Below, in pieces: positions 14,206-47,476 of a DNA stretch of 64,000 bases; within the stretch, counting starts at the first letter, position 1; each line of letters begins with the position of its first letter. The stretch comes from an uncultured Candidatus Saccharibacteria bacterium. GTDB lineage: Bacteria; Patescibacteriota; UBA1384; JAMDBS01; DAOVQR01. Made by a program: the position numbers and the translations under genes. The DNA is taken from positions 29,283 through 93,282 of the forward strand of contig CAYZSW010000002.1 of NCBI GenBank assembly GCA_964481135.1. Reading direction: 5' to 3'. The notes under the pieces were generated by a model. It made no database searches and was not told the origin of the DNA. It saw only the letters and a list, made by a program, of their open reading frames with translations.

Positions 14206-14221
14206 TAGAAAATTTTAAAAT

Positions 14222-16424: not shown

Positions 16425-18191
16425 ATGAATGGAAAAATTTCAAAAGTATCAGGACCGCTAGTAATAGCTAAAAATCTAGAAGGCGCTAGAATGTACGATG
16501 TAGCCAAAGTTTCTAAAGAAAAACTTATTGGCGAAATTATTCAAATAGATCAAGATCAAGTATCAATTCAAGTATATGAAGATACCGCTGGTCTTGGACC
16601 TAACGAAGAGGTAGAAACAACTAATATCCCTCTTTCTGTAACTTTAGGGCCAGGTCTAATTAGTTCAATTTATGACGGTATCCAACGCCCACTTGAATTA
16701 ATGCAAAAAAAAGCTGGAGCTTATATTACTCGAGGAATCGAAGTCCCAAAACTTGATTTAAATAAAAAATGGAAATTCAAACCGCTAGTTAAAACAGGTG
16801 ATAAAGTAGAAGGTGGCGATATAATTGGAGAAGTAGATGAAACATCTTTAATTAAACACAAAATCATGGTTCCACCTAGTATTAAAAATGGCACAATTAA
16901 AGATATTAAATCTGGTGAATACACTGTGCAAGATATAATTGCTGTAGTCCTGACAAAAGATAAAGAAGAATCAATAAAGATGATGCAAGAATGGCCAATT
17001 CGTAAAGCTAGACCATACAAAGATAAAATTGTTCCGAAAACGCCACTTGTAACTGGCCAAAGAATTATTGATACCTTTTTTCCAATCGCTAAAGGTGGAA
17101 CCGCTTGCGTACCTGGTCCTTTTGGATCCGGTAAAACTGTTGTTCAGCACCAACTTGCCAAATGGGCAGATGCCGATATTATTATCTTTATTGGCTGTGG
17201 TGAAAGAGGAAATGAAATGACAGATGTACTACAAGAATTCCCAGAACTTAAGGATCCAAAATCTGGCGAACCACTTATGAAAAGAACTGTTTTAATCGCT
17301 AACACATCAAATATGCCAGTAGCTGCTCGTGAGGCTTCAATTTATACTGGAGTTACTATTGGAGAATATTTTAGAGATATGGGTTACAAAGTTGCACTTA
17401 TGGCTGACTCAACTAGTCGTTGGGCAGAAGCACTCCGTGAAATGTCAGGTCGTCTAGAAGAAATGCCTGGCGAAGAAGGATATCCAGCTTATTTAGGATC
17501 AAGAACAGCAACTTTTTATGAAAGATCAGGACAAGTTAAGTGCGCCGGATCTCAAGAACGCCAAGGATCTTTAACATTAGTTGGAGCTGTTTCTCCTCCT
17601 GGTGGTGATCTTTCTGAACCAGTAACTCAAAATACTTTAAGATGCGTAAAGGTTTTTTGGGGTCTTGATGCATCACTTGCATATAAAAGACACTTCCCTG
17701 CCATTAATTGGCTTGATAGTTATTCTTTATATATTGATGATATTCAAGATTATATTAAAAAAGAAGTTTCTGAGAATTGGTTTAATCTAAGAACAGAAGC
17801 AATGGACTTACTCCAAAAAGAAGAAGCTTTGCAAGAAATCGTTCGTCTTGTAGGAGTTGAATCGCTTTCTGCTTCAGATCAGTTAACGCTAGAAACTGCA
17901 AAAAGTATTCGAGAAGATTATCTTATGCAAAACGCTTTTGATGATACAGATACCTATACTTCTCTACCAAAACAAGCTAAAATGCTAGAAGTAATTATTA
18001 AACTTCATCAAAAAAGAACAGAAATTATTAAAACCAATACCGAAATTGAACTAAAAAAATTATTTGGCCAAATAGAAAATTCACCGATGTATCAAATAAA
18101 TCAAGATATTGCTAAAATGAAATTTATCCCTGAAAAAGAAATAAATAAATATGACGAATTAATTGAAAAAATAGAAAAAACAGAAATATAA
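16425..18191 (+). CDS. atpA: V/A-type ATPase catalytic subunit A
   Basis: 588 aa; Walker A GPFGSGKTV, plus the non-homologous insert region typical of A subunits; no intein (length normal). Confidence 0.97.
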   Translation: MNGKISKVSGPLVIAKNLEGARMYDVAKVSKEKLIGEIIQIDQDQVSIQVYEDTAGLGPNEEVETTNIPLSVTLGPGLISSIYDGIQRPLELMQKKAGAYITRGIEVPKLDLNKKWKFKPLVKTGDKVEGGDIIGEVDETSLIKHKIMVPPSIKNGTIKDIKSGEYTVQDIIAVVLTKDKEESIKMMQEWPIRKARPYKDKIVPKTPLVTGQRIIDTFFPIAKGGTACVPGPFGSGKTVVQHQLAKWADADIIIFIGCGERGNEMTDVLQEFPELKDPKSGEPLMKRTVLIANTSNMPVAAREASIYTGVTIGEYFRDMGYKVALMADSTSRWAEALREMSGRLEEMPGEEGYPAYLGSRTATFYERSGQVKCAGSQERQGSLTLVGAVSPPGGDLSEPVTQNTLRCVKVFWGLDASLAYKRHFPAINWLDSYSLYIDDIQDYIKKEVSENWFNLRTEAMDLLQKEEALQEIVRLVGVESLSASDQLTLETAKSIREDYLMQNAFDDTDTYTSLPKQAKMLEVIIKLHQKRTEIIKTNTEIELKKLFGQIENSPMYQINQDIAKMKFIPEKEINKYDELIEKIEKTEI

Positions 18192-18204
18192 TATAAAAAT
18201 TACA

Positions 18205-18285
18205 AATAACAAATTACAAATTTCCAATATCAAACCTGTCTCGACTTGGTCGAGCCAAGGCGGATAAATTACAATGATCAAAATC
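18205..18285 (+). promoter_or_regulatory. conserved intra-operon hairpin element (copy 2, before atpB)
   Basis: ACAAATAACA...GTCTCGACTTGG-TCGAG-CCAAGGCGGATAAATTACAATGATCAAAA; hairpin CTCGAC-TTG-GTCGAG. Confidence 0.45.
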
Positions 18286-18376
18286 CAAATATATTAATAA
18301 TTTAAGAATTGAGATTTGAAAAATTATTTATAATTTGGTGCTTGAGATTTGCTATTTATTCCTGAAAGGAATCTAT

Positions 18377-19879
18377 ATGCAAAAAGAATACAAAACAATT
18401 AAATCAATAAGCGGACCTCTAGTTTTAGTGGATAAAACCATAGATATTAAATACGAAGAAATGGTTGAAATCGAATTACCAAGTGGCGAAAAAAGAAGAG
18501 GTAAGGTTTTAGAAATCAACGAAGACAAAGCTCTTGTACAAATGTTTGAGGGCTCATCGGAAATTCTTCCATCAGAAACTAAAGTAAAATTTTTAGGCAA
18601 AACTGCAAAAATTTCCGTTTCAGAAGAAATGCTAGGTAGAGTTTTTTCTGGAGCAGGAAAACCTATTGACGGTGGAGCTGAAATCATTGCTGACCAAGAG
18701 CTAGACATCAATGGTAACCCTTTAAATCCATATGCCAGAAATTATCCAAACGATTTTATTCAAACAGGAATTTCAACTATAGATGGATTAAATACTCTAG
18801 TTAGAGGACAAAAATTACCTATTTTTTCCGGCTCTGGTTTGCCTCACTCCCGTTTAGCTACCCAAATTGCTCGTCAAGCCAAAGTGATTGGCAAAGCCAA
18901 TCATCCTGAGCGATCCTCTGGCGGAGAGTCGAAGGATCTTAATAGAAAAGATGAAAAAGAGAAATTTGCTGTAGTATTTGCAGCTATGGGTATTACTTTT
19001 GAAGAAGCGAACTATTTTATTGAAGATTTTAAAAAAACCGGCGCTATTGAAAAATCAGTACTTTTCATTAATTTAGCAAATGATCCGGTTGTAGAGCGTA
19101 TTTCTACCCCTCGCTTGGCATTAACCTGCGCTGAATATTTAGCATATGAAAAAGGAATGCATGTGCTAGTAATATTGACTGATCTAACAAATTATTGCGA
19201 GGCTTTAAGAGAAATATCTGCAGCGCGTAAAGAGGTGCCTGGCCGTCGTGGCTATCCAGGATATTTATACACCGATCTCTCAACACTCTATGAAAGAGCT
19301 GGAAGAATCAAAGGAAAAGAAGGTTCTATTACTCAAATTCCGATTTTAACTATGCCTGAAGATGATAAAACTCATCCTATCCCAGATTTAACCGGTTACA
19401 TTACTGAAGGACAAATTATGCTTTCCCGCCAATTATACAATACCGGCGCAATGCCTCCTGTTGATGTTTTACCATCTTTATCTCGTCTAAAAGACAAGGG
19501 CATTGGTGAAGGCAAAACAAGAGAAGATCATTCTCAAGTATTGAATCAATTGTTTGCATCATACGCTAGAGGCAAAGAAGCAAAAGAGCTTGCTGTTATT
19601 CTTGGAGAAGCAGCACTTTCTGATGTTGATAAAAAATTCGTAGAATTTGCTAATCGATTTGAAAAAGAATTTGTATCGCAAGGCGAAAATGAAGATAGAA
19701 CTATTATTGAAACTCTTGATTTAGGATGGAAATTAATGAGCATTATTCCAGTTTCAGAACTTAAGCGTCTTAAACCAGATATGATCGCTAAGTATATGCC
19801 ACGGACAGAGTCCGAACGTAAAACTCAAAACGAAAAAGTTAAAACAGAAGAAAAAGAAAGAAAAAATAAATTAACCTAA
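18377..19879 (+). CDS. atpB: V/A-type ATPase subunit B
   Basis: Start placed at ATG 18377 with SD AAAGGAA. The ORF-track start at 18335 is a [17 protein letters not shown]...FSGSGLPH...[10 protein letters not shown]. Contains a GC-richer ~25-aa insert ([24 protein letters not shown]) and a Lys/Glu-rich C-terminal tail. Confidence 0.95.
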
Positions 19880-24499: not shown

Positions 24500-27400
24500 C
24501 TATTTACTTGTCTGAGTTTTCTTTAAATATTCCATCACTTCTTGATATTTTTCATCCGTTATCTTTTGATATTCCTTAAGTATCTCAAGCACATCAGTTA
24601 ATTTTAAAAGTGATGTAAGCTTATATCCTTTTTTCGCCAAATTCTTACCCCCTCCCTGTTCTCTATCTAATACTACAACTACATCTTTAACCTTCATCCC
24701 AGCTTTTTTCATTGGCTCAATATTCTCAAACTTACTTCCACCATCTGTAATCATATCATCAATAATAATACATCTATCGCCTTTTTTATAAACTCCTTCT
24801 ATTTTTCTACCCGTACCATAAGATTTAGTTTCTCGTCTGGCATAAATCATTGGTTTATTTAAAATCCTTGACATATGAACTGTAATTGGAAGTGCTGTAT
24901 ATGGAACACCTGCCATAATATCAAACTTAATATTTTTTACTAGATTTGTCATTTCTTTGGCAATTTGTTCCATTAAATCTGGGTAAGAAACTAGCGGTCT
25001 TAAATCAATGTAAATTGGTGATTTAAGTCCTGACTTTAAAGTAAAATTACCAAATTTAATTGCTTCTTTGCTAAATAAATCTAGTACTAATTTTGCGGTT
25101 TTATGTTTATTAATTTCATCACGCAATTGTTTGGTTTTTATTCTAGAAGCTTGGGCAAAATCTTTGCCACTTGATGCATAAATAATACCACGAGCAGAAT
25201 TTATTATCATTCCAAAACCTTCGGAATTCATTCCATTTTGTACCACTTCTGCCACAGATCCACCCTGCTTACCAACTCCTGGAACTAAGAATTCCATATC
25301 TGGTGCTGCTTGACGAATTTCAGCTAACTCCTCTGGATATGTTGCGCCTGCTACCATTAAAAGATTGCCATTAGTATTCCACTGGTCTCTTACTTTTTCG
25401 AGCATGTGCATATAAACCGGTTTACCATTTACATCTTTTATATCTTGAATATCACGCGCACCAGGATTTGATGAACGAACCACCACTATAACACCTTTAT
25501 CCTTATACTTAGCAAACGGTTCAATACAATCATGCCCCATATAACCATTTACAGTTGAAGCATCAAAACCGAATGTTTCAAAAATCGCCTTAGCATATGC
25601 CTCATTAGTATTGCCAATATCACCCCTTTTAGCATCAACAATAATTGGTACACCTTTTTTGTGAGCATATTCCACTGTTTTTTTCAGAGCATCTAAAGTT
25701 TCATCTGCCTCATAAAAAGCAAAATTTGGTTTATAGGCACATACTAAATCAGCTGTGGCATCAATAACAGCTTTATTAAATTGATACACTCCTTGTGAAT
25801 TTTTAGCTAACCCTTCTGGTAATTTACTAATTGATGTGTCGAGCCCCACACAAACCATTGAATTATTCTCTCTTTGTTTTTTCCTAAGCATTTCTAAAAA
25901 TGTCATATTTTTCCTTTCTTCCCCCCTGCCCGCCATCGCAAGCCTAACTTGCTCGCTTACACACCTACGAGGTGAAAGAAGTTCCACTCCTCGTAGGTGG
26001 TTTACGATTATATTTGTATTTAATTCTAATGTTCCTCTTAATTTATTAATATCATCAATATTATTATTGTGTAAATATTCTTCTATTCCTTTAACAATTT
26101 CTTGCGTAATCTTTGGGTTCAAATAATTAGCAGTTCCAACAGATACTGCAGTTGCTCCAGCCACAATAAACTCTAAAGCATCTTGCGCATTTGATATTCC
26201 ACCCATGGCAATAATTGGTATTTTTACTGCTTGATAAACCTGATGAACCATTCTTAATGCCACCGGTTTTACAGCTGGACCCGATAATCCCCCGGTATTA
26301 TTGGTTAAAATCGGTTTTCTCTGATCCAGATTAATTGCCATTCCCATTAAAGTATTAATAAGTGATACAACATCAGCACCACCATCTTCTGCTGCCTTTG
26401 CACAGGCCTTAATATCTGTCACATTAGGAGAAAGTTTCACAATAATTGGTTTATTTGTTACTTGCCGAATTTTTTGAGTCACGAGTTTAATCTCGTATGG
26501 ATCAGTTCCAATTGCCATACCAGTATGCACATTTGGACAGGAAAAATTCAATTCCAAATAATCAATTTTTTTTTCTTTATCTAGTATCTTTGCAAGTTGA
26601 ATATATTCTTTTGAATCTTTACCGGCAATCGATATAATAAGCGGTAAAAAAACCTTATTCACACCTACGAGGTGTGAACTTCTTTCACCTCGTAGATGAA
26701 TAAGTTTTGGCAATTCATTTTTAATAAAATCTTTTACCCCAGAATTTTTGAGCCCTACAGCATTTAGCATTCCACCTTCAACTTTTATCATTGTCGGCGG
26801 CTTATGTCCCTCTCGAGGTTCAAGCGTAATAGTTTTGCAAGTTAAGGCGCCAAGTTTTTTTTCATTAAGATTTTTCGAACTTGGCCAATCTACTCCATAA
26901 GTACCCGATGCAGTGGTTACCGGATTTTGCCAAGTTATCCCCGCAATCTCAACTGATAAATTTGGTTTATTTTTCATTATAAATTTAACTTCCTTGCCTT
27001 TTACCTTATCAAAAATTCTACCTCTGTCAAATACAACATTTCCATTTACGATTGTCATGATTGGCCAACCCTTTAATTTTTTGTCAACGAATGGACTCCA
27101 CCCGCATTTTGTATAAAGTTTTTGATTATTTACTTTTTTAATTAAATTCAAATCAATTATTGTTAAATCAGCATCATTTCCAATTTTTACTTCACCCTTA
27201 TTTTTAATCCCAAATATTTTCACAGAATTTTTACAAATTAAATCAATAATTTTATTTAATGATATTTTCTTTTTGTTATAAGCATCTAATAAAAGTGGCA
27301 ACATTGTTTCTACGCCAGGAACTCCAAAAGGACTGTCATCTTTTGTTTTTTCTTCCCTGGTATGAGGCGCGTGATCTGTTCCAATTGTATCAACTATCCC

Positions 27401-28183
27401 CTCATCAATCGCCTGCCAAAGCGCTTTTTGATCCTCTTTTGTTTTAAGTGACGGTTTCATCTTCACAAAATTATTTTCATCTTTTTGAGTTAAAAATAAA
27501 TGGTGCGGTGTTACTTCTACAAATAATTTGCCTGCTTTACGCAACCTTTGTGCAATAGAATTATTTCTAATGTAATCTATCTCGTTTTTTGATGAAATAT
27601 GACATAAATATAAGCAAGTTCCTGTTATTTTAGTTAAGTTGATTGCTTTTTTCACCATCTCACCTTCTGCATGCACAGCTACCATTCTAGAATTTTTCCA
27701 AATTTCTAGTAAAGTATAATCATCTTCAATCATCATTTTTCCGGTTGAAAGATTCATGAAAACTTTAGTTGCAGCAACATTTTTAACTGTTTGAATTGCA
27801 TCAATATTATCCATGCTCGAACCAAAATAAAATCCATAGTTTACCAAACTTTTTTCCGATGATATTTTTCGCTTATTTTTTAGGTCATCTAATAATAACA
27901 TTGGTGGATTATTATTGGGCATATCAAGCACTGTTGTAATTCCTCCTGTAACTGCAGCTTTTGAACCGCTTTGCCAATCCTCTTTATAACTATCCAAAAA
28001 ATCGCGAAAATGAACATGCGAGTCAATAATTCCTGGTAAAATAACCTTGCCATTTAAATTAATAGTTCTATTTGCATAAGATAATTTTTTATTTATATCA
28101 AAAATTTTTCCATCTTTAATTTGGATGTTTATTTTTTTTAGCCCCTCCATCCAAACATAACCTCCCACTAGATTGGTTTTCAT
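24500..28183 (-). CDS. four-domain pyrimidine-biosynthesis fusion protein: dihydroorotase (PyrC) - dihydroorotate dehydrogenase (PyrD) - OMP decarboxylase (PyrF) - orotate phosphoribosyltransferase (PyrE)
   Basis: 1227 aa. aa ~40-400: DHOase (GIIDSHVHFRD...TDHAPH). aa ~410-720: DHODH (VEIAGITWQNPVTTASGTYG, NFSCPNV, GGISNAQDALEFIVAGATAVSVGTA). aa ~770-990: OMPdecase (MVCVGLDTS, KPNFAFYEA, VDAKRGDIGNT). aa ~1000-1227: OPRTase (FKSGLKSPIYIDLR, IIDDMITDGGS). Start ATG overlaps the pyrI stop (ATGA). Two palindromic-element insertions in frame (25915-26000; 26654-26704). Confidence 0.9.
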   Translation of the reverse strand: MKTNLVGGYVWMEGLKKINIQIKDGKIFDINKKLSYANRTINLNGKVILPGIIDSHVHFRDFLDSYKEDWQSGSKAAVTGGITTVLDMPNNNPPMLLLDDLKNKRKISSEKSLVNYGFYFGSSMDNIDAIQTVKNVAATKVFMNLSTGKMMIEDDYTLLEIWKNSRMVAVHAEGEMVKKAINLTKITGTCLYLCHISSKNEIDYIRNNSIAQRLRKAGKLFVEVTPHHLFLTQKDENNFVKMKPSLKTKEDQKALWQAIDEGIVDTIGTDHAPHTREEKTKDDSPFGVPGVETMLPLLLDAYNKKKISLNKIIDLICKNSVKIFGIKNKGEVKIGNDADLTIIDLNLIKKVNNQKLYTKCGWSPFVDKKLKGWPIMTIVNGNVVFDRGRIFDKVKGKEVKFIMKNKPNLSVEIAGITWQNPVTTASGTYGVDWPSSKNLNEKKLGALTCKTITLEPREGHKPPTMIKVEGGMLNAVGLKNSGVKDFIKNELPKLIHLRGERSSHLVGVNKVFLPLIISIAGKDSKEYIQLAKILDKEKKIDYLELNFSCPNVHTGMAIGTDPYEIKLVTQKIRQVTNKPIIVKLSPNVTDIKACAKAAEDGGADVVSLINTLMGMAINLDQRKPILTNNTGGLSGPAVKPVALRMVHQVYQAVKIPIIAMGGISNAQDALEFIVAGATAVSVGTANYLNPKITQEIVKGIEEYLHNNNIDDINKLRGTLELNTNIIVNHLRGVELLSPRRCVSEQVRLAMAGRGEERKNMTFLEMLRKKQRENNSMVCVGLDTSISKLPEGLAKNSQGVYQFNKAVIDATADLVCAYKPNFAFYEADETLDALKKTVEYAHKKGVPIIVDAKRGDIGNTNEAYAKAIFETFGFDASTVNGYMGHDCIEPFAKYKDKGVIVVVRSSNPGARDIQDIKDVNGKPVYMHMLEKVRDQWNTNGNLLMVAGATYPEELAEIRQAAPDMEFLVPGVGKQGGSVAEVVQNGMNSEGFGMIINSARGIIYASSGKDFAQASRIKTKQLRDEINKHKTAKLVLDLFSKEAIKFGNFTLKSGLKSPIYIDLRPLVSYPDLMEQIAKEMTNLVKNIKFDIMAGVPYTALPITVHMSRILNKPMIYARRETKSYGTGRKIEGVYKKGDRCIIIDDMITDGGSKFENIEPMKKAGMKVKDVVVVLDREQGGGKNLAKKGYKLTSLLKLTDVLEILKEYQKITDEKYQEVMEYLKKTQTSK
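25915..26000. repeat. GC-rich palindromic element E2, in frame inside the fusion CDS (PyrD-PyrF linker)
   Basis: CCCCCCTGCCCGCCATCGCAAGC-CTAA-CTTGC...CACCTACGAGG-(16 nt)-CCTCGTAGGTG (11-bp perfect IR). Encodes HLRGVELLSPRRCVSEQVRLAMAGRGEE. The left module is repeated at 44715; the IR module at 26654. Confidence 0.7.
26654..26704. repeat. 51-bp palindromic element E3, in frame inside the PyrD domain
   Basis: CTTATTCA-CACCTACGAGGTG-TGAACTTCTTT-CACCTCGTAG-A-TGAATAAG; arms about 20 bp; 51 bp = 17 codons (…HLRGERSSHLVGVNK…). Confidence 0.7.
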
Positions 28184-30707: not shown

Positions 30708-32723
30708 TTATAGTTGTTCTTTGAATTCTTCAGGTATTTCATCTATAAATCTGGACCTAATATTACTTTGGATATTTCCATAAATTAATCGAGATTGTGC
30801 ATAAGTTAAGTATAATCTTTCTTTGGCTCGAGTTATACCCACATAGGCTAATCGCCTTTCCTCTTCAAGTTCTGAAGAATCTAAAATACTTCTAGAATGA
30901 GGAAACAACCCCTCTTCCATTCCTGCAATAAAAACTACAGGAAATTCTAAACCTTTTGCATTATGAAGTGTCATTAGGGTTAAAACATCTTGGTTTTTAT
31001 TATAATTATCAATATCAGAAACTAATGCAATCTCCTCTAAAAAACTTTCTAAATTAGTATACTTTGACGCTACTGATTTTAATTCTTCAATATTTTCCAA
31101 TCTCATTTCGGCTTGCTCGGTTTTTTCATCTAAAAGCATCTTTCTATATCCGGCTTCGTCAATAACATGTTCAATCAAGTCTGCGGGTGTCATTTCTGGA
31201 ACTCTTTTCCTAAACTTTTCCATCATTTCAAAAAAATTTTGAATTTTTGAATTTTGATTTTTGAATTTATTTAGGATTTCGGATTTAGAATTTAGGATTT
31301 TTCCCAGAGTTTTAGCGCCAATCCCTCTTGTAGGAACATTAATGATTCTCTCCAGTGATACTTCATCATCAGGATTCGCAATCAAACGCAAATATGCTAA
31401 AACATCTTTAATTTCCTTGCGTTGATAAAATTGCACTGCTCCAACTATTTTATAAGGAATTGATCTTTTTAATAAAATTTCTTCAACAACTCTAGATTGA
31501 GCATTAGTTCTATATAATATAACAAAATTATTTAAGCTTTTTTGCTCAGATATTAAAGCTTCCACTTCGTCTACCACAAAATTAATTTCATCTTCATGAT
31601 CACTTGCTTCATAAATTGTAATAGGTGCTCCATCTTTTTTTTCTGTCCATAATTTTTTTTCTGTTCTACTTCGATTATATTTTATTAAATCATTCGCAGC
31701 AGATAAAATATTACCCGTTGATCGATAGTTTTGTTCGAGCTTAATAATTTTTGCATTAGAATAATCTTTCTCAAAATTTAAAATATTACGAAAATTTGCT
31801 CCCCTAAATCCGTAAATTGCCTGATAATCATCGCCTACTACACAAACATTTTTGTGTTTTTTTGCTAATGCTTTTATTAATTCATATTGAACAGTATTTG
31901 TGTCTTGATACTCATCAATTAAAATATAACGAAATATTTTCTGATACTTATTTAAAACTTCTGGAAACTTGTCAAAAAGTTCTAGAGTTAAAACCAACAG
32001 ATCATCAAAATCAAGCGCATTGGCGCGCTTTAAACGCTTTTGATACTCCGTGTAAACTTTATCGACCTTTTCTAAAAAAGGATTATCAACATAATTATGA
32101 TATTCTTTTGCACGAATTAATTCATTTTTAGCACCAGAAATAAAATTTTTAATTGCCTTCGGATTATTCTCTTTTATATCAATACTCAAATCTTTACATA
32201 TTTTTTTAATTAAACTCAAACTATCACTCTGATCATAAATTACAAAACTTCTTTCAAATCCTATTTGGTGAATTTCTCGACGCAAAATTTTTACACAAAT
32301 ACTATGAAAAGTACCCATCCACGGCAAACGTTTAGCGTTTGCCAACTCTGAAGCACGAATATCTAAATCCGAAACAATTTTCGAATTTTTTAGATTTTGA
32401 TCATTGAAATTTTGAATTTGTTTGGAACTTGTTATTTGTGATTTGTTATTTGAAATGAGTAGTCGGGCCACTCGACTACTCATTTCTGTTGCTGCTTTAT
32501 TTGTAAATGTTACTGCTAAAATATTATATGGACTTATATTTTTTTCTAAAACTAAATATGCTAATCTATGTGTTAAAGCTTTGGTCTTACCGCTTCCTGC
32601 TCCAGCTAATATCAAAACTGGCCCTTCTGTGGCCAGCACCGCTTCCTGTTGTTTTTTGTTTAAATCCTCTAAAATATCCATGTTTTTAGTATAACAAAAA
32701 AATGCGTAAATTACCGTATCCAT
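30708..32723 (-). CDS. uvrD: UvrD/PcrA-family DNA helicase, with low-complexity insertions
   Basis: Walker A AGAGSGKT, motif Ia TFTNKAATEM, later helicase motifs. Likely true start M15 (MDILEDLNKKQQEAV, ATG at 32679-32681). Inserts encoded by repeats 32379-32452 and 31237-31303. Confidence 0.9.
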   Translation of the reverse strand: MDTVIYAFFCYTKNMDILEDLNKKQQEAVLATEGPVLILAGAGSGKTKALTHRLAYLVLEKNISPYNILAVTFTNKAATEMSSRVARLLISNNKSQITSSKQIQNFNDQNLKNSKIVSDLDIRASELANAKRLPWMGTFHSICVKILRREIHQIGFERSFVIYDQSDSLSLIKKICKDLSIDIKENNPKAIKNFISGAKNELIRAKEYHNYVDNPFLEKVDKVYTEYQKRLKRANALDFDDLLVLTLELFDKFPEVLNKYQKIFRYILIDEYQDTNTVQYELIKALAKKHKNVCVVGDDYQAIYGFRGANFRNILNFEKDYSNAKIIKLEQNYRSTGNILSAANDLIKYNRSRTEKKLWTEKKDGAPITIYEASDHEDEINFVVDEVEALISEQKSLNNFVILYRTNAQSRVVEEILLKRSIPYKIVGAVQFYQRKEIKDVLAYLRLIANPDDEVSLERIINVPTRGIGAKTLGKILNSKSEILNKFKNQNSKIQNFFEMMEKFRKRVPEMTPADLIEHVIDEAGYRKMLLDEKTEQAEMRLENIEELKSVASKYTNLESFLEEIALVSDIDNYNKNQDVLTLMTLHNAKGLEFPVVFIAGMEEGLFPHSRSILDSSELEEERRLAYVGITRAKERLYLTYAQSRLIYGNIQSNIRSRFIDEIPEEFKEQL

Positions 32724-32839
32724 ACTGCATATCTCGCTACATCTCGCTCAGTAACTATTAAAATCTCATTACTACAAAAATTTTATCCATACCATAAACT
32801 CTTGAATTTTATTTATAAACACAAAATGACAAAGACATA

Positions 32840-32868
32840 CCATATTCCACTCCGTAAGTGGAATATGG
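32840..32868. repeat. exact repeated hairpin (copy 1)
   Basis: TACCATATTCCAC-TCCGTAA-GTGGAATATGGTT; the identical 33-mer also occurs at 60256-60288. Confidence 0.8.
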
Positions 32869-32939
32869 TTTATGTTTTTAGTTTTTAGTATATCAGCTAT
32901 TAGTTAACTAGTTAATAATTTATTTGTAGTAATTAGTAT

Positions 32940-33330
32940 GTTATTCATGATTTGTAAAGATTCGTAGCTATATTAAAAGACCCAGGAGTTATCTGCTTGT
33001 AGCCCTCCATTTTTTAATAAAGTGGCTGCAGTTTCTCTTGGGTCTAAGGCGATATATCGGCCTTATTGTATCTCCTTCCGGAGATATTATTCCCAAGAAA
33101 GAGTTACTTATGTGGCCTATATTACGCTGGTTGATCCTACAATCTATTTTAAGTTTCGTTTTGTTTTTGTTTAATGTGTTAGTAGGATCAGCTTGTCCCG
33201 AATTGTGAGTACATAATTAATTCGAGACATACTGACTCTACCAATAATCCCTCCTTTTTAATGTTCCCTCCTGCTTTTTCGTTGATTATAATATAATACC
33301 AATTACCAATAGACATGTCAAGCCCTTAAT
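32940..33330. ncRNA. candidate structured non-coding RNA / structured DNA region (unclassified)
   Basis: ORF-free ~390 bp with clearly higher GC than its surroundings and many local hairpins (GACCCAGGAG...TCTTGGGTC; AAGGC-GATATATCG-GCCTT; TATCTCC-TTCC-GGAGATA; GATCCTAC...GTAGGATC). I could not match RNase P, tmRNA or SRP signatures by eye. Confidence 0.3.
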
Positions 33331-33360
33331 AAAAATAAACAAATTAACAGGTTAAAATGT

Positions 33361-33441
33361 TAGATTTTAGATTTATGATTTTAGATTTAAGTTCTTACCT
33401 GTGGATAAATCAAAAATCATCCTGTGGATAACTATTTAATA
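33361..33441. promoter_or_regulatory. AT-rich 8-mer tandem repeats followed by two perfect DnaA boxes (oriC-like module)
   Basis: TTAGATTTTAGATTTATGATTTTAGATTTAAG, then TGTGGATAA at 33410-33418 and 33433-33441 (reverse complement of TTATCCACA), same orientation, 23 bp apart; immediately downstream of dnaB. Confidence 0.4.
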
Positions 33442-33534
33442 AAAGCTGAACGACGCGGATTACTACGCAGAAAAAAAGCGGAAATTTATCAGCGTAGATC
33501 TGCGTTACTATCTGCGTATATCTGCTTCTATCTT

Positions 33535-34917
33535 TTACAGTTCAATATTATCTACTTGTTTTCTTTCAATAGTTCTAAATTTAGTTTGCTCTGGATGAAA
33601 ATATAATTCTACAGATCCAATAGGACCATTCCTATGTTTTTTAACTAAAATATCTGCGATGTTTTTTCTTTCTGTGTCAGGATCATAATAATCTTCACGA
33701 TATATAAACATAACTACATCTGCATCCTGTTCAATTGATCCTGATTCTCTTAAATCTGCCAACACTGGCCGTTTATCTGGTCTATGCTCTACCGCTCTAG
33801 AAAGTTGAGACAGCGCAATCACTGGAACATTTAATTCCCTAGCAAGCCCTTTAAGACCTCTAGATATTTCAGAAATTTCTTGGACTCTATTTGTATCATT
33901 AGATGTTCTTCTACCCTGCATAAGCTGCAAATAATCGATCATAAGCAAACCCAAATTGTGCTCAGCTTGCAATCTTCTTGCTTTTGTTCGAATCTCCATA
34001 ACATTTAACATCGGCGAATCGTCAATGTAAAGTGGCGCCTCTGAAAGAATTCCCATGGCATGGCCGATCTTTGGAAAATCTAGTTCAGACAAATTGCCAG
34101 TTCTTAATTTCCAAGCATCTATGCCCGCCTGAGAACAAAGCAATCTATCAACTAATTGCTCTTTAGATTGTTCTAAAGAAAAAATACCAACACTTTTTTT
34201 TATATTTGTAGCAACAAACTGAGCAATATTTAAAGCCAATGAAGTTTTTCCCATCGATGGTCGAGCTGCTAAAATTATTAAATCTGATTCTTGCAGACCA
34301 GCTAAAATATTATCTAAATCGCGATACCCAGTTGCAATTCCTCTTAACTGACCCTTTTGTTTATGCAATTCATCAATTCTATCGAATGCTTCAGTTAAAA
34401 TTGATTTTACAGGAGTAAAGTATTGTCGAAAAAATTTTTGCGAAACTGAAAACAATTCTTTTTCCGATTGATCCAGAACATCGTCAATTTTTCTGTTTTC
34501 GTCGTAACCCATTTGAGTAATATTTATCGCTGCTTGTAATAAACGACGCAAAACTGATTTGTTTTTAATAATTTCAGCATAATGTTCAGCATGAGCAGCT
34601 GTTGGCACAGAATTTACTAAGGTTGTTAAATATGTTGCTCCGCCAACAGCATCAATTATTTTTGCTTTTTCTAATTTATCAGATAAAGTCACAATATCTA
34701 TTGGCCGACGCTCTTCAAATAATTCTACCATAGCTTGAAAAATGTTTTTATGTCTTTCCTCATAAAAATCGTCTGGGTGTAGCGCATCACCAATTTGAAT
34801 TATTGCATCTTTAGATAGTAAAACCGAACCCAAAACAGACTGTTCTGCTTCAATGCTTTGAGGCGGTATTCGTAATTCAGAATTTTTATTTGATTGTCCA
34901 ATTTTTGTTCTTTTCAT
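33535..34917 (-). CDS. dnaB: replicative DNA helicase DnaB
   Basis: 460 aa; Walker A GARPSMGKTS, LSQLSR, RecA-like C-terminal domain; no intein. Confidence 0.95.
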   Translation of the reverse strand: MKRTKIGQSNKNSELRIPPQSIEAEQSVLGSVLLSKDAIIQIGDALHPDDFYEERHKNIFQAMVELFEERRPIDIVTLSDKLEKAKIIDAVGGATYLTTLVNSVPTAAHAEHYAEIIKNKSVLRRLLQAAINITQMGYDENRKIDDVLDQSEKELFSVSQKFFRQYFTPVKSILTEAFDRIDELHKQKGQLRGIATGYRDLDNILAGLQESDLIILAARPSMGKTSLALNIAQFVATNIKKSVGIFSLEQSKEQLVDRLLCSQAGIDAWKLRTGNLSELDFPKIGHAMGILSEAPLYIDDSPMLNVMEIRTKARRLQAEHNLGLLMIDYLQLMQGRRTSNDTNRVQEISEISRGLKGLARELNVPVIALSQLSRAVEHRPDKRPVLADLRESGSIEQDADVVMFIYREDYYDPDTERKNIADILVKKHRNGPIGSVELYFHPEQTKFRTIERKQVDNIEL

Positions 34918-35222
34918 ATTGATAATATAAATAAAATTAATTTTTATATCAATTTTAAGGTTTAAAAAACTAAATTGAGGAAAACAAGTGGATAAAAAAT
35001 ATGTTTCTCCTACTATTTTTTTTAAATATGTTAATTATATTATTATATGGTTAGAGTTAAAAAGCTAGTTTGGTTAAAGAGTTAAATTATTGTGTTTAAC
35101 TGATAAACTTAACCCGATTTTCTATACTAACTTCATAGCCATTCCCATACAATAACTTATGTTATTAGCAGATCTTGTTTTTCATCTAAACCCAAATAAA
35201 TAAAATCAGCGTTTACAATACA

Positions 35223-36794
35223 TTATATATCAAACACATCCATCGCTTGTGAAACTAAATCATTTTTACTATTTTTTTTAGAAGAGTCAATTTGAGCTGC
35301 ATCAACAATTTGAGCATCATCAATCAGACAATTTATTTTGCATTTTTTACCAAAAACTTGCTCTATTTTTTCAACTAATGTTGAATAATTTTTATTTTCA
35401 GTGATTTTTTCTGCGTAAAATTTAAATTTAACGCTTATTTTAAATTCATTATTGCTTATTCCTGAAAAATTTGAATCTTTCAACAATAAAGACAATGAAC
35501 GGTTAGCTTCTCCAACTTTATCAATAAACTCATTCCATTTTTCCTGAGGATTGTAAACATCAATATCTTCGCTTTTAATTGTTTCTACTTGTTTTTTGGA
35601 TTCTTGAACAGAATTTTCTTTAATTAATTCCTTCTTAACCTCTAATTTATTCTTAATAATACCTGGGCTGATTTTCTTCTCTAATTCTAAATTATTATTT
35701 AACTTTAATGATTCTTGTTTCTTTTCACAAACCTCATATACAGCAAGCTCAAGTGGAAGCTCTGGTGAATCAATAATTTTTATTTCTTTTGAAATACCAA
35801 TAAAAATTGCCAAAATATCTAAAATTTCAGAAATCTTTATTTTTTCAGCAATATTCTTCATTCTTTTTAATTCTTTTTCAGCAACAATTAAATTTATCTT
35901 GGCCTTTGAAGAAAAAATCAATAAATTTCTTAAATAGTGAATTATTTGGTTATTAAATTCTACTAAATCAAATCCTTTAATGTGTATACTACTAATTAAT
36001 TCTAAAGCAAGTGTTATTTTTTTATCTGTTAGATATTCAATGAAATCTCCAACTTTTTCGGCGCCCACTAAACCAATAGTTTTTTCTACAATATTCAAAG
36101 TTATATTTTTTTCTCCAACGGAATTAACCTGGTCTAAAATTGAAAGTGCATCACGAAAAGAACCGTCTGATTTTTGTGCAATAAGATTTATAGCAGCATT
36201 TTCGATTTTTATTTTTTCGATTTTGACAATTTGACTTATCCTTTTTACCAAATCATTAATAAGAGCACGATTAAATTGAAATTCTTGAACTCGAGATAAA
36301 ATTGTGTCTGGCACCTTATCTGGTTCAGTTGTTGCCATAATAAATATTGCGTGTTTTGGTGGCTCCTCCAATGTTTTCAAAAGAGCATTAAAGCTTTCTT
36401 TTGTAAGCATATGAACTTCATCAATAATAAATATTTTGTATTTAGAACCAGAAGGTGCATACCGAATCTTGTCTCTTAAATCTCTAATTTCATCAATACC
36501 TCTATTACTTGCAGCATCAATCTCTAGTACATCTAGCGAATGTCCGCTTGAAATTTCCTTACAACTAGAACATTGGTTACAAGGTTCAGATTGCAGTGAT
36601 TTTCGATTAGTACAATTTAATGCTTTAGATAAAAGTCGGGCAGAAGAAGTTTTACCAGTTCCTTTTGGACCCACAAAAAGATAGCCATGGCTAGTAGCAC
36701 CTGTTTTAATGGCATTTTCTAATATTTTTTTAGTTGTATCTTGACCAACTAAATCTTTAAATTTTTGTGGTCGGTATTTTAAATACAAACTCAT
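35223..36794 (-). CDS. dnaX: DNA polymerase III subunit gamma/tau
   Basis: GPKGTGKTSSARLLSKALNC, Zn module CNQCSSCKEI, DEVHMLT box. Confidence 0.9.
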   Translation of the reverse strand: MSLYLKYRPQKFKDLVGQDTTKKILENAIKTGATSHGYLFVGPKGTGKTSSARLLSKALNCTNRKSLQSEPCNQCSSCKEISSGHSLDVLEIDAASNRGIDEIRDLRDKIRYAPSGSKYKIFIIDEVHMLTKESFNALLKTLEEPPKHAIFIMATTEPDKVPDTILSRVQEFQFNRALINDLVKRISQIVKIEKIKIENAAINLIAQKSDGSFRDALSILDQVNSVGEKNITLNIVEKTIGLVGAEKVGDFIEYLTDKKITLALELISSIHIKGFDLVEFNNQIIHYLRNLLIFSSKAKINLIVAEKELKRMKNIAEKIKISEILDILAIFIGISKEIKIIDSPELPLELAVYEVCEKKQESLKLNNNLELEKKISPGIIKNKLEVKKELIKENSVQESKKQVETIKSEDIDVYNPQEKWNEFIDKVGEANRSLSLLLKDSNFSGISNNEFKISVKFKFYAEKITENKNYSTLVEKIEQVFGKKCKINCLIDDAQIVDAAQIDSSKKNSKNDLVSQAMDVFDI

Positions 36795-39483: not shown

Positions 39484-41205
39484 TTATGGCAATCTTATTA
39501 TCATCCAATTAAATTGCATATTTTCACCATTATTATTTGAACGAATTCTAAAACCTGGTGGGATTCCAGCATTTACAGAATCAACCCAATAAATTCCCTG
39601 TGGTTGCGAGGCAGGAGTAATATATACCAAATCATTTACCGCCAAACGAGCATTACCATCTAAAGTAATATCTATATATGCCTCTACACCATCTATAGTC
39701 CATGCTCCTGTTGATTGGCCAGTCCAAGTACCACCGCCAACTACACCACCCCTAGTTTTAATACCAAATATTTGACCAATGCTAGAATTACCAATAAATT
39801 TAGCTACATAATTTTCATCATTAGTAAAAGCATTGTTTTCTACAGTTATACCAGTAGTGTTTTCTACATTTACACCTGCCTGGTTGATAGTAAATATTGT
39901 GTCATTATTAGAAGCCTCTACATTCAACATGGTCACTCTATTAAATCTTAAATCTAATACACTTGTCGCATCTATGCTATTACCTAATCGTAAAGTACCT
40001 GCTGTAACATTGCTCGGATAAATATTATCAACGATTAAATTAGCATTTTGCACCGTAATAGAGTCGGTTGCTCCAACTTCAGTAAACAATATCCTAGCAT
40101 CAGTAGCTCCTAACCCCACCCACTGTCCATCTGCAACTGTAATATTGTTGTTAAACGACCATCCTCCAGTAATTGTTTCGTTGGCAGAAAGGTCAAGTAA
40201 GTTTTGATTTTGTATGCCAGCGATAGTATTTGTTACTGCATTAAAACTAATATCACCAGTTCCTGTAATATTATTCCCTCCCATGTTAATAGCACCACTC
40301 ATGGTGCCGCCAGAAAGATTTAGTTTTGAATTTAATTGAGTTTGTAAATTTGATGTTGTACCTACTAAATATTGAAAATTTGTTGATGTAACGCCAGCTA
40401 AAGCACCACCTGAGAGAATATTAAGATCATTGGTGTTTCCAGTATAACCACCAAGTACATTAATCTCCCCTGCTGTTGCCAAAACAGTAACTGAATTAAG
40501 CTCAAATGCGCCAGTAATATTCATTGTTCCGGAAGTTGTAATATCTCCAGAAGTATTGATGGAAATATTTGATGCTAGGTCAGATCCTTGTATTTGATTT
40601 GCCAAATTAAGTGATGAATAAGTTATTGAATTTGCTGGAAGTGAAACTGATCCGCCAGTAATATTTAAACCATTTGATGCTTCTAATGTACCTGCAGATT
40701 TTATTCCAGCTGCAATATCAATTTCTCCTAAAGAATTAAGTTTTAGTATATTATTAGATCCTGTGCCAGGCGTTGCTCCTTGTAGAGCTTGAGAATTAGA
40801 TGCATTTAAAGACCACGGGGCAGAGCCTAGTTGTTTTCTAGGAGTCATCTCAGAGTCAGACCCAATTCTTACTCCTAAATAATAGTCAGAACCTGAAAAA
40901 TCAGTGTTAAGTGGAGTAATAGACCCTAGCTGTGCATCTACATAACCGCGGGTAGCATAAAGAGTATGAGTTTCTGACCAAAAAGAAGATCCGCCTGAAG
41001 ACTGGGTGTAAAGAGAAAAAGACACGGTGTAATAACCATTTGAAACAATATTACCTGATTTATTCATTAGTCGTGCTTGGTAATGTAAAGTATTAGACAT
41101 TGCCAAAGATTGAGAATAGTTAAAAAATACACATATAGATGCAATAAAAACTACTACTATAATAGTCCACCAATTCTGATTATTGTGAAATCTTTTTAGC
41201 AACAA
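39484..41205 (-). CDS. signal-anchored Gly/Ser/Thr/Asn-rich tail-fibre-like surface protein (variant 1)
   Basis: 573 aa; N-terminal anchor, beta-rich repeat region with LSGGTMSGAINMGGNNITGTGDISF; N-terminal 297 aa identical to 42611..44188, middle divergent, shared C-terminal end FNWMIIRLP. Confidence 0.75.
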   Translation of the reverse strand: MLLKRFHNNQNWWTIIVVVFIASICVFFNYSQSLAMSNTLHYQARLMNKSGNIVSNGYYTVSFSLYTQSSGGSSFWSETHTLYATRGYVDAQLGSITPLNTDFSGSDYYLGVRIGSDSEMTPRKQLGSAPWSLNASNSQALQGATPGTGSNNILKLNSLGEIDIAAGIKSAGTLEASNGLNITGGSVSLPANSITYSSLNLANQIQGSDLASNISINTSGDITTSGTMNITGAFELNSVTVLATAGEINVLGGYTGNTNDLNILSGGALAGVTSTNFQYLVGTTSNLQTQLNSKLNLSGGTMSGAINMGGNNITGTGDISFNAVTNTIAGIQNQNLLDLSANETITGGWSFNNNITVADGQWVGLGATDARILFTEVGATDSITVQNANLIVDNIYPSNVTAGTLRLGNSIDATSVLDLRFNRVTMLNVEASNNDTIFTINQAGVNVENTTGITVENNAFTNDENYVAKFIGNSSIGQIFGIKTRGGVVGGGTWTGQSTGAWTIDGVEAYIDITLDGNARLAVNDLVYITPASQPQGIYWVDSVNAGIPPGFRIRSNNNGENMQFNWMIIRLP

Positions 41206-41290
41206 CCCTCCTTAAAGAGTAGTTTTTAATACGAATATTTAAACTAAGTATACCAAAGATGGCGTAAAATTAGAATGTGGATAATTTAAT
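40330..41290. repeat. ~960-bp duplicated block (copy 1) = 5' part of the fibre gene plus ~85 bp upstream
   Basis: Apparently identical by inspection to 43318-44273, including the upstream CCAAAGATGGC...GAATGTGGATAATTTAAT (perfect DnaA-box 9-mer TGTGGATAA). Confidence 0.8.
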
Positions 41291-42610: not shown

Positions 42611-44188
42611 TTATTGTCTAATTATAATCCAGTTAAAATCCATCGTTTCCTGAAATACACCTCCAGAATCTCTTGAAGATACTGTAAATGAATCAGCTCC
42701 AGCAGTTATCCAATAATCTCCATTTCCTACTTTCTCAGTTACTGGTGTAATTATAACCAAATCATTGCTATTTAGAAATGCTGTACTCACTGTAATAGTG
42801 CTAGGATTTGCATTACTCCACGCTCCAGTTTCTCTGCCAGACCAGTACGAATCTCCTTTAATGTAAGAATTTTCTGTTTGTAAAAGTGCATTTCTAAATA
42901 ATAATTGATCCATTGTATCATCAACAAAAACTATATCTGCTCCACCAATACCCCCCACCCCGATTGTTCGACTACTAGACATGGCAATATTACCAGATAC
43001 ATTTAATTGATCTACATTAAAATATTGCGCATTGTCAATACTAATACTACCTGCACCCGTTGCGCTAAAAGATATTCTTGGGCTTGCTGCCCCCAACCCC
43101 ACCCACTGTCCATCTGCAACTGTAATATTGTTATTAAACAACCATCCTCCAGTAATTGTTTCATTGGCAGAAAGATCAAGTAAGTTTTGATTTTGGATAC
43201 CTGCAACAGTATTTGTAACTGCATCAAAGGTAATATTGCCGGTTGCAGTTAAATTGTTTCCTCCCATAGCAATAGCTCCGCTCATAGTGCCACCAGCAAG
43301 ATTTAGTTTAGAGTTTAATTGAGTTTGAAGATTTGATGTTGTACCTACTAAATATTGAAAATTTGTTGATGTAACGCCAGCTAAAGCACCACCTGAGAGA
43401 ATATTAAGATCATTGGTGTTTCCAGTATAACCACCAAGTACATTAATCTCCCCTGCTGTTGCCAAAACAGTAACTGAATTAAGCTCAAATGCGCCAGTAA
43501 TATTCATTGTTCCGGAAGTTGTAATATCTCCAGAAGTATTGATGGAAATATTTGATGCTAGGTCAGATCCTTGTATTTGATTTGCCAAATTAAGTGATGA
43601 ATAAGTTATTGAATTTGCTGGAAGTGAAACTGATCCGCCAGTAATATTTAAACCATTTGATGCTTCTAATGTACCTGCAGATTTTATTCCAGCTGCAATA
43701 TCAATTTCTCCTAAAGAATTAAGTTTTAGTATATTATTAGATCCTGTGCCAGGCGTTGCTCCTTGTAGAGCTTGAGAATTAGATGCATTTAAAGACCACG
43801 GGGCAGAGCCTAGTTGTTTTCTAGGAGTCATCTCAGAGTCAGACCCAATTCTTACTCCTAAATAATAGTCAGAACCTGAAAAATCAGTGTTAAGTGGAGT
43901 AATAGACCCTAGCTGTGCATCTACATAACCGCGGGTAGCATAAAGAGTATGAGTTTCTGACCAAAAAGAAGATCCGCCTGAAGACTGGGTGTAAAGAGAA
44001 AAAGACACGGTGTAATAACCATTTGAAACAATATTACCTGATTTATTCATTAGTCGTGCTTGGTAATGTAAAGTATTAGACATTGCCAAAGATTGAGAAT
44101 AGTTAAAAAATACACATATAGATGCAATAAAAACTACTACTATAATAGTCCACCAATTCTGATTATTGTGAAATCTTTTTAGCAACAA
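42611..44188 (-). CDS. tail-fibre-like surface protein (variant 2)
   Basis: 525 aa; same N-terminal 297 aa as 39484..41205, different middle, C-terminal FNWIIIRQ. Confidence 0.75.
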   Translation of the reverse strand: MLLKRFHNNQNWWTIIVVVFIASICVFFNYSQSLAMSNTLHYQARLMNKSGNIVSNGYYTVSFSLYTQSSGGSSFWSETHTLYATRGYVDAQLGSITPLNTDFSGSDYYLGVRIGSDSEMTPRKQLGSAPWSLNASNSQALQGATPGTGSNNILKLNSLGEIDIAAGIKSAGTLEASNGLNITGGSVSLPANSITYSSLNLANQIQGSDLASNISINTSGDITTSGTMNITGAFELNSVTVLATAGEINVLGGYTGNTNDLNILSGGALAGVTSTNFQYLVGTTSNLQTQLNSKLNLAGGTMSGAIAMGGNNLTATGNITFDAVTNTVAGIQNQNLLDLSANETITGGWLFNNNITVADGQWVGLGAASPRISFSATGAGSISIDNAQYFNVDQLNVSGNIAMSSSRTIGVGGIGGADIVFVDDTMDQLLFRNALLQTENSYIKGDSYWSGRETGAWSNANPSTITVSTAFLNSNDLVIITPVTEKVGNGDYWITAGADSFTVSSRDSGGVFQETMDFNWIIIRQ

Positions 44189-44273
44189 CCCTCCTTAAAG
44201 AGTAGTTTTTAATACGAATATTTAAACTAAGTATACCAAAGATGGCATGAAATTAGAATGTGGATAATTTAAT
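43318..44273. repeat. ~960-bp duplicated block (copy 2)
   Basis: See copy 1; divergence begins 3' of codon ~297 and 5' of the shared upstream AATTTAAT. Confidence 0.8.
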
Positions 44274-44714: not shown

Positions 44715-44812
44715 ACCCTCCCTTGCCCGCCATCGCAAGCTTGAGCTTTACCCGCCTGCCACGACTTGTGTCTGGCATGTCGGGCATGGCTCAGGCGTTG
44801 CAGGCGTGGCTT
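44715..44812. repeat. GC-rich palindromic element E6
   Basis: CTTGCCCGCCATCGCAAGCTTGAGC (as in E2) + CCCGCCTGCC (as in E1) + CGCCTGC...GCAGGCG inverted repeat; GC-rich island in AT-rich DNA. Confidence 0.65.
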
Positions 44813-47400: not shown

Positions 47401-47476
47401 GCGTGTGTAGCTCAGTGGTTAGAGCGCCACCCTTATAAGGTGGAGGTCGAGGGTTCAATTCCCTCCACACGTACCA
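47401..47476 (+). tRNA. tRNA-Ile with anticodon TAT (reads AUA), CCA encoded
   Basis: Hand fold: acceptor GCGUGUG/CACACGU (G1-U72), U8 A9, D-stem GCUC/GAGC, anticodon stem CCACC/GGUGG with loop CUUAUAA (U34 A35 U36), T-arm GAGGG-UUCAAUU-CCCUC, disc A, CCA. Followed by the terminator hairpin at 47483-47508. Confidence 0.75.

Follow-up and report, generated by a model that had tools for sequence, protein, structure and literature searches.

Large orphan non-coding RNAs (ncRNAs) of bacteria, such as OLE, the raiA motif, HEARO and GOLLD/ROOL, are lineage-restricted molecules with covarying helices, invariant internal loops and their own promoter and terminator, and their function is not evident. 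Here, we describe a locus that resembles them in these respects, with promoter and terminator as predicted. It lies in a stretch of 64,000 nucleotides of contig CAYZSW010000002.1 from an uncultured Candidatus Saccharibacteria bacterium; the whole of this stretch is called the window below. In the gap between the genes for the replicative helicase DnaB and a UvrD/PcrA-like helicase, the minus strand is predicted to encode a structured RNA, with a length of 200-450 nt in its various members. In contrast to the orphan RNAs named above, it matches none of their Rfam models, and it is set apart by its occurrence in Patescibacteria, its fixed synteny with dnaB and a pair of DnaA boxes at a fixed position upstream of its promoter.

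DnaA regulates the promoters of sda, dnaA and nrdAB. In E. coli, DnaA is described as a transcription factor that works at paired boxes away from oriC (PMC11317965), and in B. subtilis as a protein that binds stably at intergenic sites (PMC2533591). The present locus shares with such promoters a pair of consensus boxes upstream of a sigma-70 promoter and a neighbourhood of replication and repair genes. However, its predicted product is a structured RNA and not a protein, and the boxes, putative binding sites of DnaA, are located far upstream (-122 and -145). Their spacing is 14-29 bp from start to start, versus the 2-3 bp gaps reported for E. coli.

Three further systems invite comparison. The basal unwinding system of bacterial oriC also has perfect DnaA boxes beside an AT-rich repeated tract, but the present locus has no skew switch, dnaA gene or trio array nearby, only two boxes whose orientation is not fixed, and a tract that is dispensable in compact homologues. 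Like 6S RNA and mycobacterial Ms1, the RNA is highly structured, single-copy, non-coding and, given its strong promoter, probably abundant; unlike them, it has no 6S model match and no closed rod with a central bubble, and it ends in an independent 3' terminator hairpin. The Caulobacter ncRNA CcnA is encoded at the origin. It is timed by the cell cycle (10.1101/756452) and resembles the present RNA in concept only, in that ncRNA transcription is tied to a master regulator of replication and the cell cycle. The two are unrelated in sequence and structure, and CcnA is CtrA-dependent and origin-located, whereas here DnaA boxes and a non-origin site are involved.

We conclude, with a probability of roughly 65%, that the gap downstream of dnaB houses a self-contained minus-strand gene for an uncatalogued structured ncRNA that is probably DnaA-regulated and acts in trans.

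Results

A predicted RNA gene in the gap downstream of dnaB

The window is a piece of chromosome of a Patescibacteria (candidate phyla radiation, CPR) bacterium with about 30% G+C, and the closest relatives of its DnaB are all proteins of Patescibacteria metagenome-assembled genomes. A sequence-only reading of this DNA had drawn attention to 810 bp of non-coding sequence next to dnaB, with a GC-richer, structured core, and had proposed an ncRNA and/or a replication origin. Its description of the gap was confirmed, with minor corrections. Between the UvrD/PcrA-like open reading frame (ORF) and dnaB (32724-33534), only mechanical ORFs of 35-60 aa are present, none of them conserved; the G+C content is 0.33-0.41 over about 32950-33250, versus 0.23-0.27 in the flanks; and the segment 32930-33340 differs from shuffled sequences with z scores of -5.2 (minus strand) and -4.1 (plus strand). 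The ncRNA proposal was supported and could be sharpened, as a predicted promoter and terminator, a strand, 16 distinct homologues and strong covariation can be assigned to the RNA, and no Rfam family covers it. The features of the gene and its upstream region are as follows (window coordinates):

33423..33431, minus strand: distal perfect DnaA box, which reads TTATCCACA in the sense of the RNA; position about -145 relative to the predicted RNA start
33400..33408, minus strand: proximal perfect DnaA box, about -122 from the predicted RNA start
33360..33389, unstranded: AT-rich tandem 7-mers between boxes and promoter, AGATTTW x4 (TTAGATT x4.1 at 33360-33388)
33344..33352, minus strand: ACCTGTTAA motif, about -65 from the predicted RNA start
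33293..33321, minus strand: predicted sigma-70-type promoter (TTGACA, 17 bp, TGgTATTAT), 11 of 12 matches, extended -10
32975..33286, minus strand: structured RNA of ~312 nt, predicted ends; fold z -7.45; covariance model R1 41.7 bits, E 1.5e-8, minus strand only
33245..33286, minus strand: 5' leader with the conserved A-rich element AAAAAG...ACAUUAAAAA and two AGGAGGG purine runs
33179..33244, minus strand: long 5' hairpin P2 with the conserved apical loop GUACUC (33212-33207)
33133..33189, minus strand: helix GAUCCUAC (33189-33182) / GUAGGAUC (33140-33133), enclosing the A-rich linker AAACAAAAACAAAA (33172-33159)
33049..33127, minus strand: hairpin H-A; its base helices covary, and at its apex CUUUCUU (33101-33095) pairs with GGAAGG (33079-33074)
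32975..33045, minus strand: hairpin H-B and U-run, an intrinsic-terminator-like 3' end (hairpin 33045-32978, U-run 32978-32975)

Homologues and synteny

Homologues were collected by three independent routes: from the neighbours of DnaB relatives, by a DNA-pattern scan of metagenomes that was blind to dnaB, and by a scan of genome contigs. The result is a set of 17 related Patescibacteria loci with 16 distinct sequences, all of which adjoin the 3' end of dnaB. On contigs with close DnaB relatives, a homologue was found directly after dnaB wherever the downstream sequence sufficed. The metagenome scan with a pattern of the RNA core returned 86 stretches, among which only L093, L094, L108, L167 and L173 were true matches, and all five lie immediately 3' of dnaB. 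The pattern scan of viral contigs returned 2 stretches, one of them a duplicate of a metagenome chance match (L158).

The covariance model (CM) R1 was built from four relatives, with the window sequence excluded. It recovered the window, L081 and L085/L086 as well as the genome-contig loci L001, L005 and L018, and its scores on sequences outside its training were 41.7 bits for the window, 59.3 for L081, 56.3 for L085 and 43.6 for L001. A further model, R2, recovered L174-L179, with untrained scores of 159.5 (L174), 157.3 (L178), 90.3 (L175), 79.6 (L177) and 41.9 bits (L176). At 11 other, more distant CPR dnaB loci, a CM scan with the filters off did not find the RNA; therefore, the family is either limited to a sub-clade or sited elsewhere in those genomes.

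The gene on the far side of the RNA varies and can be uvrD, a glycosyltransferase gene (L081) or the gene of a G5/DPBB protein (L085, L086 and L175). In L001 and L177, the entire module of boxes, promoter and RNA is inverted between dnaB and uvrD, such that the RNA reads toward the dnaB end. With such an arrangement, neither a cis-regulatory leader nor a 3' untranslated region of dnaB is tenable, and the gene is marked as autonomous. Judged from its homologues, the RNA is an autonomous, conserved and highly structured gene with a promoter architecture like that of stable RNAs.

Covariation, strand and fold

For the 3' domain, the CM alignment of the 16 distinct sequences (A8) has 92.3% of its cells paired and compensatory changes in 33 of 41 pairs. 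None of 500 shuffles equalled these values, and when the partners were slid by 1-3 columns, at most 55% of the cells were paired and at most 21 pairs were compensatory. Comparable covariation was obtained with 9 sequences (alignment A6). Pairing amounts to 87-97% in helices 1-3, which form H-A, and to 88-97% in helices 4-6, which form H-B and have compensatory changes in 17 of 19 pairs. CM-based realignment replaced MAFFT alignments of the 3' domain, in which the window and L081 had been mis-registered. For P2, in turn, a structure-blind MAFFT alignment (A7) has 93.8% of cells paired and compensatory changes in 7 of 14 pairs. Two further observations are likewise independent of CM fitting: the close pair L085/L086 differs by a double change from G-C to A-U in the outer H-B stem, and the base helix of H-B reads CGCA/UGCG, ACACA/UGUGU, ACUUA/UAAGU, ACGA/UCGU or CUGC/GCAG across the members.

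The central six pairs of the H-A apex are identical in all 9 sequences of A6, and two of them are invariant G-U pairs; among the 16 sequences of A8, four of the six never vary. One of the G-U pairs is invariant in A8 (15/15) and the other is present in 13/14. Model R2 scored the window with 104.5 bits on the minus strand versus 18.9 bits on the plus strand. The G-U pairs together with this asymmetry fix the RNA strand as minus.

Minimum free energy (MFE) folding of each member independently yielded the two-hairpin 3' half. H-B consists of an outer stem (GACCCAAG/CCUGGGUC), the base helix (CUGC/GCAG in the window), a conserved bulge ACAA on the 3' side and an AU-rich apex. The outer stem is followed by UUUU, which corresponds to the pattern of an intrinsic (Rho-independent) terminator, and a U-run is present in every homologue. 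A simple terminator scanner missed H-B because stem and loop exceed its limits. In the 5' half, the relatives carry CUCCUUGC/GCAAGGAG in place of the GAUCCUAC/GUAGGAUC helix, and the MFE fold of the window shows competition between that helix and outer P2. Within H-A, a hairpin with a GGAA tetraloop was considered as an alternative to the CUUUCUU/GGAAGG helix. The helix is favoured because it is kept in L001 and L081, in which the tetraloop hairpin cannot form; formally, the two still compete. The pyrimidine strand CUUUC(Y)UU is constant while its purine partner varies (GGAAGG, AAGGAGGG or GGUAGGG). This constancy despite a changing partner suggests that the strand may be read sequence-specifically by some partner of the RNA.

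The upstream region

A TTGAC[AT] element with 17-bp spacing to the -10 hexamer is found at the equivalent position in all homologues. Further upstream, the two perfect DnaA boxes, 23 bp apart, that had been reported from the sequence are indeed present (TGTGGATAA on the plus strand, 33400-33408 and 33423-33431). Four AT-rich tandem repeats are also present as described, but their unit is a 7-mer and not an 8-mer. Across the loci, 9 lineages have their proximal box at -120 to -124 and four others have it at -95 to -111, whereas distal boxes are found at -134 to -148. In 12 of 16 distinct loci, positions -63 to -68 are taken by a CCTGTTAT-like motif, a candidate site for some factor. Homologues also have AT-rich tracts, often with a 7-mer periodicity, between boxes and promoter. 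This tract is likely a bent or UP-like spacer; a role as a DNA unwinding element is not demonstrated. Boxes, AT-rich tract and CCTGTTAT motif thus constitute, as predicted from the comparison, an upstream region of the RNA promoter with fixed geometry (about -145, -122 and -66).

The 200-bp windows upstream of the RNA start make up 1.5% of the 221 kb of RNA loci and hold 25 of the 30 perfect boxes (83%). Locus L174 (21 kb) has no perfect boxes other than the pair upstream of the RNA, and the inversion in L001 and L177 has carried the boxes along with the RNA. Such a conserved box position relative to the promoter is characteristic of DnaA-regulated promoters. The window contains five perfect boxes, as had been counted before, and all five are intergenic. 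Only 0.61 were expected in the window, and none of 100 shuffles reached five. A third, near-perfect box (34987-34995) does exist with one mismatch, but it is not conserved, and it carries no weight because boxes with one mismatch occur at chance frequency (24 versus 21.7 expected). A putative site for DnaA upstream of the promoter is the most economical reading of these data, and it is consistent with the action of DnaA as a transcription factor at box pairs other than those of oriC (PMC11317965; PMC2533591).

Several points weigh against the conclusion that the gap contains a DnaA-regulated ncRNA gene. Promoter, RNA ends and terminator are predictions, and DnaA binding is inferred from sequence alone. 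CM-fitted alignments lean toward the structure of the model, such that pairing in the 3' domain is somewhat inflated. Alternative pairings (the GGAA-tetraloop hairpin versus CUUUCUU/GGAAGG, and outer P2 versus the CCUAC/GUAGG helix) leave the fine structure unsettled. The boxes of the window are oriented oppositely to those of all other loci. In the compact homologues L085, L086 and L175, a single box is located at -71 and the spacer is about 30 bp, and the spacer of L176 is devoid of boxes. Hence, the RNA does not strictly require control by DnaA.

Alternative explanations

It is unlikely that the boxes are unconnected with expression of the RNA and merely share the intergenic space with it, either as a titration or reactivation locus of the datA/DARS type or as regulatory sites of dnaB or uvrD. 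The constant distance of -120 to -124 is that to the RNA promoter and not that to dnaB or uvrD, the boxes co-move with the RNA upon inversion, and the windows upstream of the RNA, with 1.5% of the sequence, hold 83% of the perfect boxes in these loci. Nevertheless, the inverted boxes of L001 and L177 stand before uvrD, in L176 a perfect box precedes dnaB by 29 bp, four loci retain the RNA without the box pair, and the remaining perfect boxes of the window are found at promoters of ordinary genes. The proposal that the region is the chromosomal oriC, in which the boxes nucleate DnaA, the 7-mers unwind and the strongly transcribed neighbouring RNA aids opening, is highly improbable. Two perfect boxes do lie beside an AT-rich repeat tract, and in most homologues the pair is kept at a fixed distance from tract and promoter. 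A regression of GC skew at third codon positions (GC3 skew; 47 ORFs) gave, however, strand-independent terms of -0.251 +/- 0.023 to the left and -0.257 +/- 0.029 to the right of 33.4 kb, that is no switch, and the 'side' term of whole-gene skew is 0.015 +/- 0.01. The cumulative skew, for which a minimum at the site had been considered, falls monotonically through it within the window, and all genes from 22.7 to 37.5 kb point in one direction across it. As the GC3 skew is equal on both sides, the window lies within one replichore, in which the minus strand is the leading strand, and the origin is beyond the right end of the window. In L174-L176, GC3 skew is too noisy to be informative; L176 has, if anything, a coding-strand effect only. 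In favour of the proposal, gene orientation does diverge just upstream of dnaX in L174, L176, L178 and L179 (in L174/L176 at a distance of about 3.5-4 kb from the box pair), and that divergent gap is without perfect boxes in all four. Scanning of 34 window ORFs, including all those of dnaA-like length, revealed no dnaA within 30 kb, and there is none within 10 kb in L174-L176. In addition, there are two boxes only, direct reading of the sequence beside them revealed no DnaA-trio run (CTA/TTA triplets), and their orientation toward the AT-rich tract is reversed in the window versus all homologues. Finally, the RNA persists in L085, L086, L175 and L176, where at most one box remains and the spacer is all but gone; the tract, present in the window, is absent from them or cut to about 30 bp. 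Skew regression, gene orientation, absence of dnaA, box orientation and the compact homologues thus speak against the origin half of the sequence-only proposal, also by the refutation criterion attached to it, and the locus is not the chromosomal origin.

The RNA itself could also be something other than an autonomous gene of a new family. A divergent housekeeping RNA that escapes the Rfam models, most plausibly an RNA-polymerase-binding RNA of the 6S/Ms1 type and less so SRP RNA (signal recognition particle) or RNase P RNA, is distinctly unlikely. 6S RNAs are defined mainly by their shape and are easily missed. A strong promoter of the stable-RNA type with an elaborate upstream region, a single copy beside replication genes and a size of 200-450 nt would all fit, and 6S, SRP, RNase P and transfer-messenger RNA (tmRNA) were not seen within the 64-kb window. 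By eye, no match to RNase P, tmRNA, 6S or SRP had been recognised in the gap, and the searches agree: the Rfam scan that had been proposed found no known family that explains the structured part, with no match in the region at the gathering level of Rfam 15 and, in permissive scans (E<=10) of the window, L087 and L085, only chance fragments of microRNAs and small RNAs; ARAGORN found no tmRNA. At this same level, no model of 6S, SRP, RNase P or tmRNA matched in the window, L087 or L085. Moreover, the RNA is built of four separate hairpins, the 3' one being a self-contained terminator, and does not resemble the 5'/3'-closed rod with central bubble of 6S RNA, and inspection revealed neither an RNase P core of the P4 type nor an SRP helix 8 GNAR loop with symmetric/asymmetric loops nor a tRNA-like end. 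SRP-like and T-box-like appearances (a GGAA loop and GGGUACCACG) were also considered and found no backing in models or motif details. A cis-acting leader of uvrD/pcrA, that is a riboswitch or attenuator in which H-B is a regulated terminator and the segments CUUUCUUGGG and UCUUGGGUC compete for the CCCAAGA strand, is very improbable, even if uvrD comes next, and in the same direction, in the window, L087, L094, L173, L174, L176 and L178, both 5' and 3' copies are complementary to the middle strand in many members, and L018 has an alternative pairing of 12 bp. With the module inverted toward the dnaB end, there is nothing to regulate in L001 and L177; the downstream gene is not constant (glycosyltransferase in L081, G5/DPBB protein in L085, L086 and L175); 250 bp with a promoter-like site and a hairpin of their own separate RNA and uvrD in the window; and the outer H-B stem covaries with its 3' partner and not with the 5' copy, which has no resemblance to the 3' copy in L001, L005 and L176. 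A terminator/antiterminator switch built on the CUUUCUUGGG / UCUUGGGYC duplication was rejected, as the duplication is absent in these three loci and the module can be inverted. That the locus encodes a small protein, with the frame FLGxHVSxEG...TARRPK running through H-A, is next to excluded: several members do have ORFs of 28-49 codons in the same frame, with a GUG after AAGGAG in L173 and L094, yet the start codon is lost in L167 and L174 (GAG), the window offers only a UUG without a Shine-Dalgarno motif, a 2-nt indel breaks the frame in L087, it is shifted in L085 and L086, and the L087 ORF reads through the terminator without a stop. Between L173 and L094, 3 synonymous and 12 non-synonymous codon differences were counted, and the substitution pattern is that of compensatory pairing. 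The absence of a conserved reading frame is as expected for an ncRNA. Literature searches, which cover the literature in part, retrieved no earlier description of this RNA, and by these comparisons it can be classed as a new family of bacterial structured ncRNAs.

Neighbouring genes and other features

The remaining features of the locus are:

33535..34917, minus strand: dnaB, replicative helicase (Pfam DnaB_C 3.9e-110, DnaB 8.7e-37); the RNA module adjoins its 3' end
30708..32723, minus strand: UvrD/PcrA-like helicase gene, the far-side neighbour of the RNA module; this neighbour is the commonest but not constant
35223-36794, minus strand: dnaX, upstream of dnaB
33487..33533, unstranded: tandem repeat TATCTGCGTA x4.5, directly after the dnaB stop
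32839..32869, unstranded: separate perfect hairpin of 13-14 bp between RNA and uvrD, terminator-like on both strands, not kept in homologues

The TATCTGCGTA repeat probably belongs to the terminator region or 3' end of dnaB; the homologues lack it and have G+C-rich hairpins in its place. The hairpin at 32839..32869 may be a back-up or bidirectional terminator or a uvrD-leader hairpin, and it is preceded by a promoter-like sequence (TTAACT, 17 bp, TGnTATACT; 32887-32915, minus strand). Near the start of uvrD, a tandem repeat ATCTCGCT x2 (32735-32757) is likewise not kept in homologues. Upstream of dnaX in four homologous loci (L174 7760-7966, L176 7242-7355, and L178/L179), a minus-strand run of type IV pilus genes meets the plus-strand run dnaX-dnaB-RNA-uvrD at a divergent gap.

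Elsewhere in the window, the perfect boxes at 41276 and 44259 overlie the -35 region of a TGgTATACT promoter. They are a single duplicated event because both lie in copies of the same upstream region: duplicate regions of ~100 bp (41190-41290 and 44170-44270) precede paralogous ORFs of 573 and 525 aa without a Pfam match. At 48529-49001, a perfect DnaA box is found 22 bp upstream of a TTGACA, followed by ~400 nt of untranslated sequence and an ORF for a surface protein of 984 aa; the ACCTGTTAT motif, which also occurs upstream of the RNA promoter, recurs at 48816. A long G+C-rich hairpin (50-62%) of ~87 nt at 44724-44810, in a gap of 688 bp beside tRNA-Glu and a YkuD-like gene, has fold z scores of -5.6 (plus) and -5.2 (minus) and matches nothing in Rfam at E<=5; a further small structured RNA and a palindromic element are both conceivable. 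The window further contains a single ORF of 1227 aa (24500-28183, minus strand) that fuses dihydroorotase, dihydroorotate dehydrogenase, orotidine monophosphate decarboxylase and phosphoribosyltransferase domains and thereby four steps of pyrimidine synthesis, genes for subunits I, A and B of a V/A-type ATPase (11634-19879) and a tRNA-Ile gene with a TAT anticodon (47401-47476). Such a tRNA is uncommon in bacteria, where AUA is usually decoded by a modified CAT tRNA.

Discussion

A possible course of events at the locus can be outlined. DnaA would act as a transcription factor and tune the synthesis of the RNA; that it modulates transcription is suggested, with moderate confidence, by the arrangement of boxes and promoter. 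The level of the RNA would then report, or feed back on, the status of replication initiation. The RNA would act in trans, most likely as a protein-bound particle that is recognised through the H-A apex and the ACAA bulge of H-B, and in this assignment our confidence is low. A more far-reaching proposal is tentative and has, in our estimate, a small chance of being correct: the RNA may be a replication-coupled riboregulator of a Patescibacteria clade, the synthesis of which would depend on how far DnaA occupies the -122/-145 boxes, and its ribonucleoprotein may feed back on initiation, helicase loading or the programme of replication and repair.

Patescibacteria comprise a large share of bacterial diversity and have tiny genomes, and almost no regulatory RNAs have been described for them; the TM7x transcriptome preprint reports no validated small RNAs (10.1101/2022.03.25.485537). 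An RNA that is kept beside dnaB across many lineages provides a concrete ncRNA class that is open to modelling, searching and testing. In these genomes, perfect DnaA boxes beside an AT-rich tract can mislead origin prediction. The promoter of the RNA bears the best-conserved DnaA boxes of its neighbourhood, so that a link from replication initiation to an RNA regulator can be put directly to the test. These minimal genomes may lack protein regulators of the initiation cycle. If the proposal of a replication-coupled riboregulator is true, the RNA would replace such proteins and would represent a new class of cell-cycle ncRNA.

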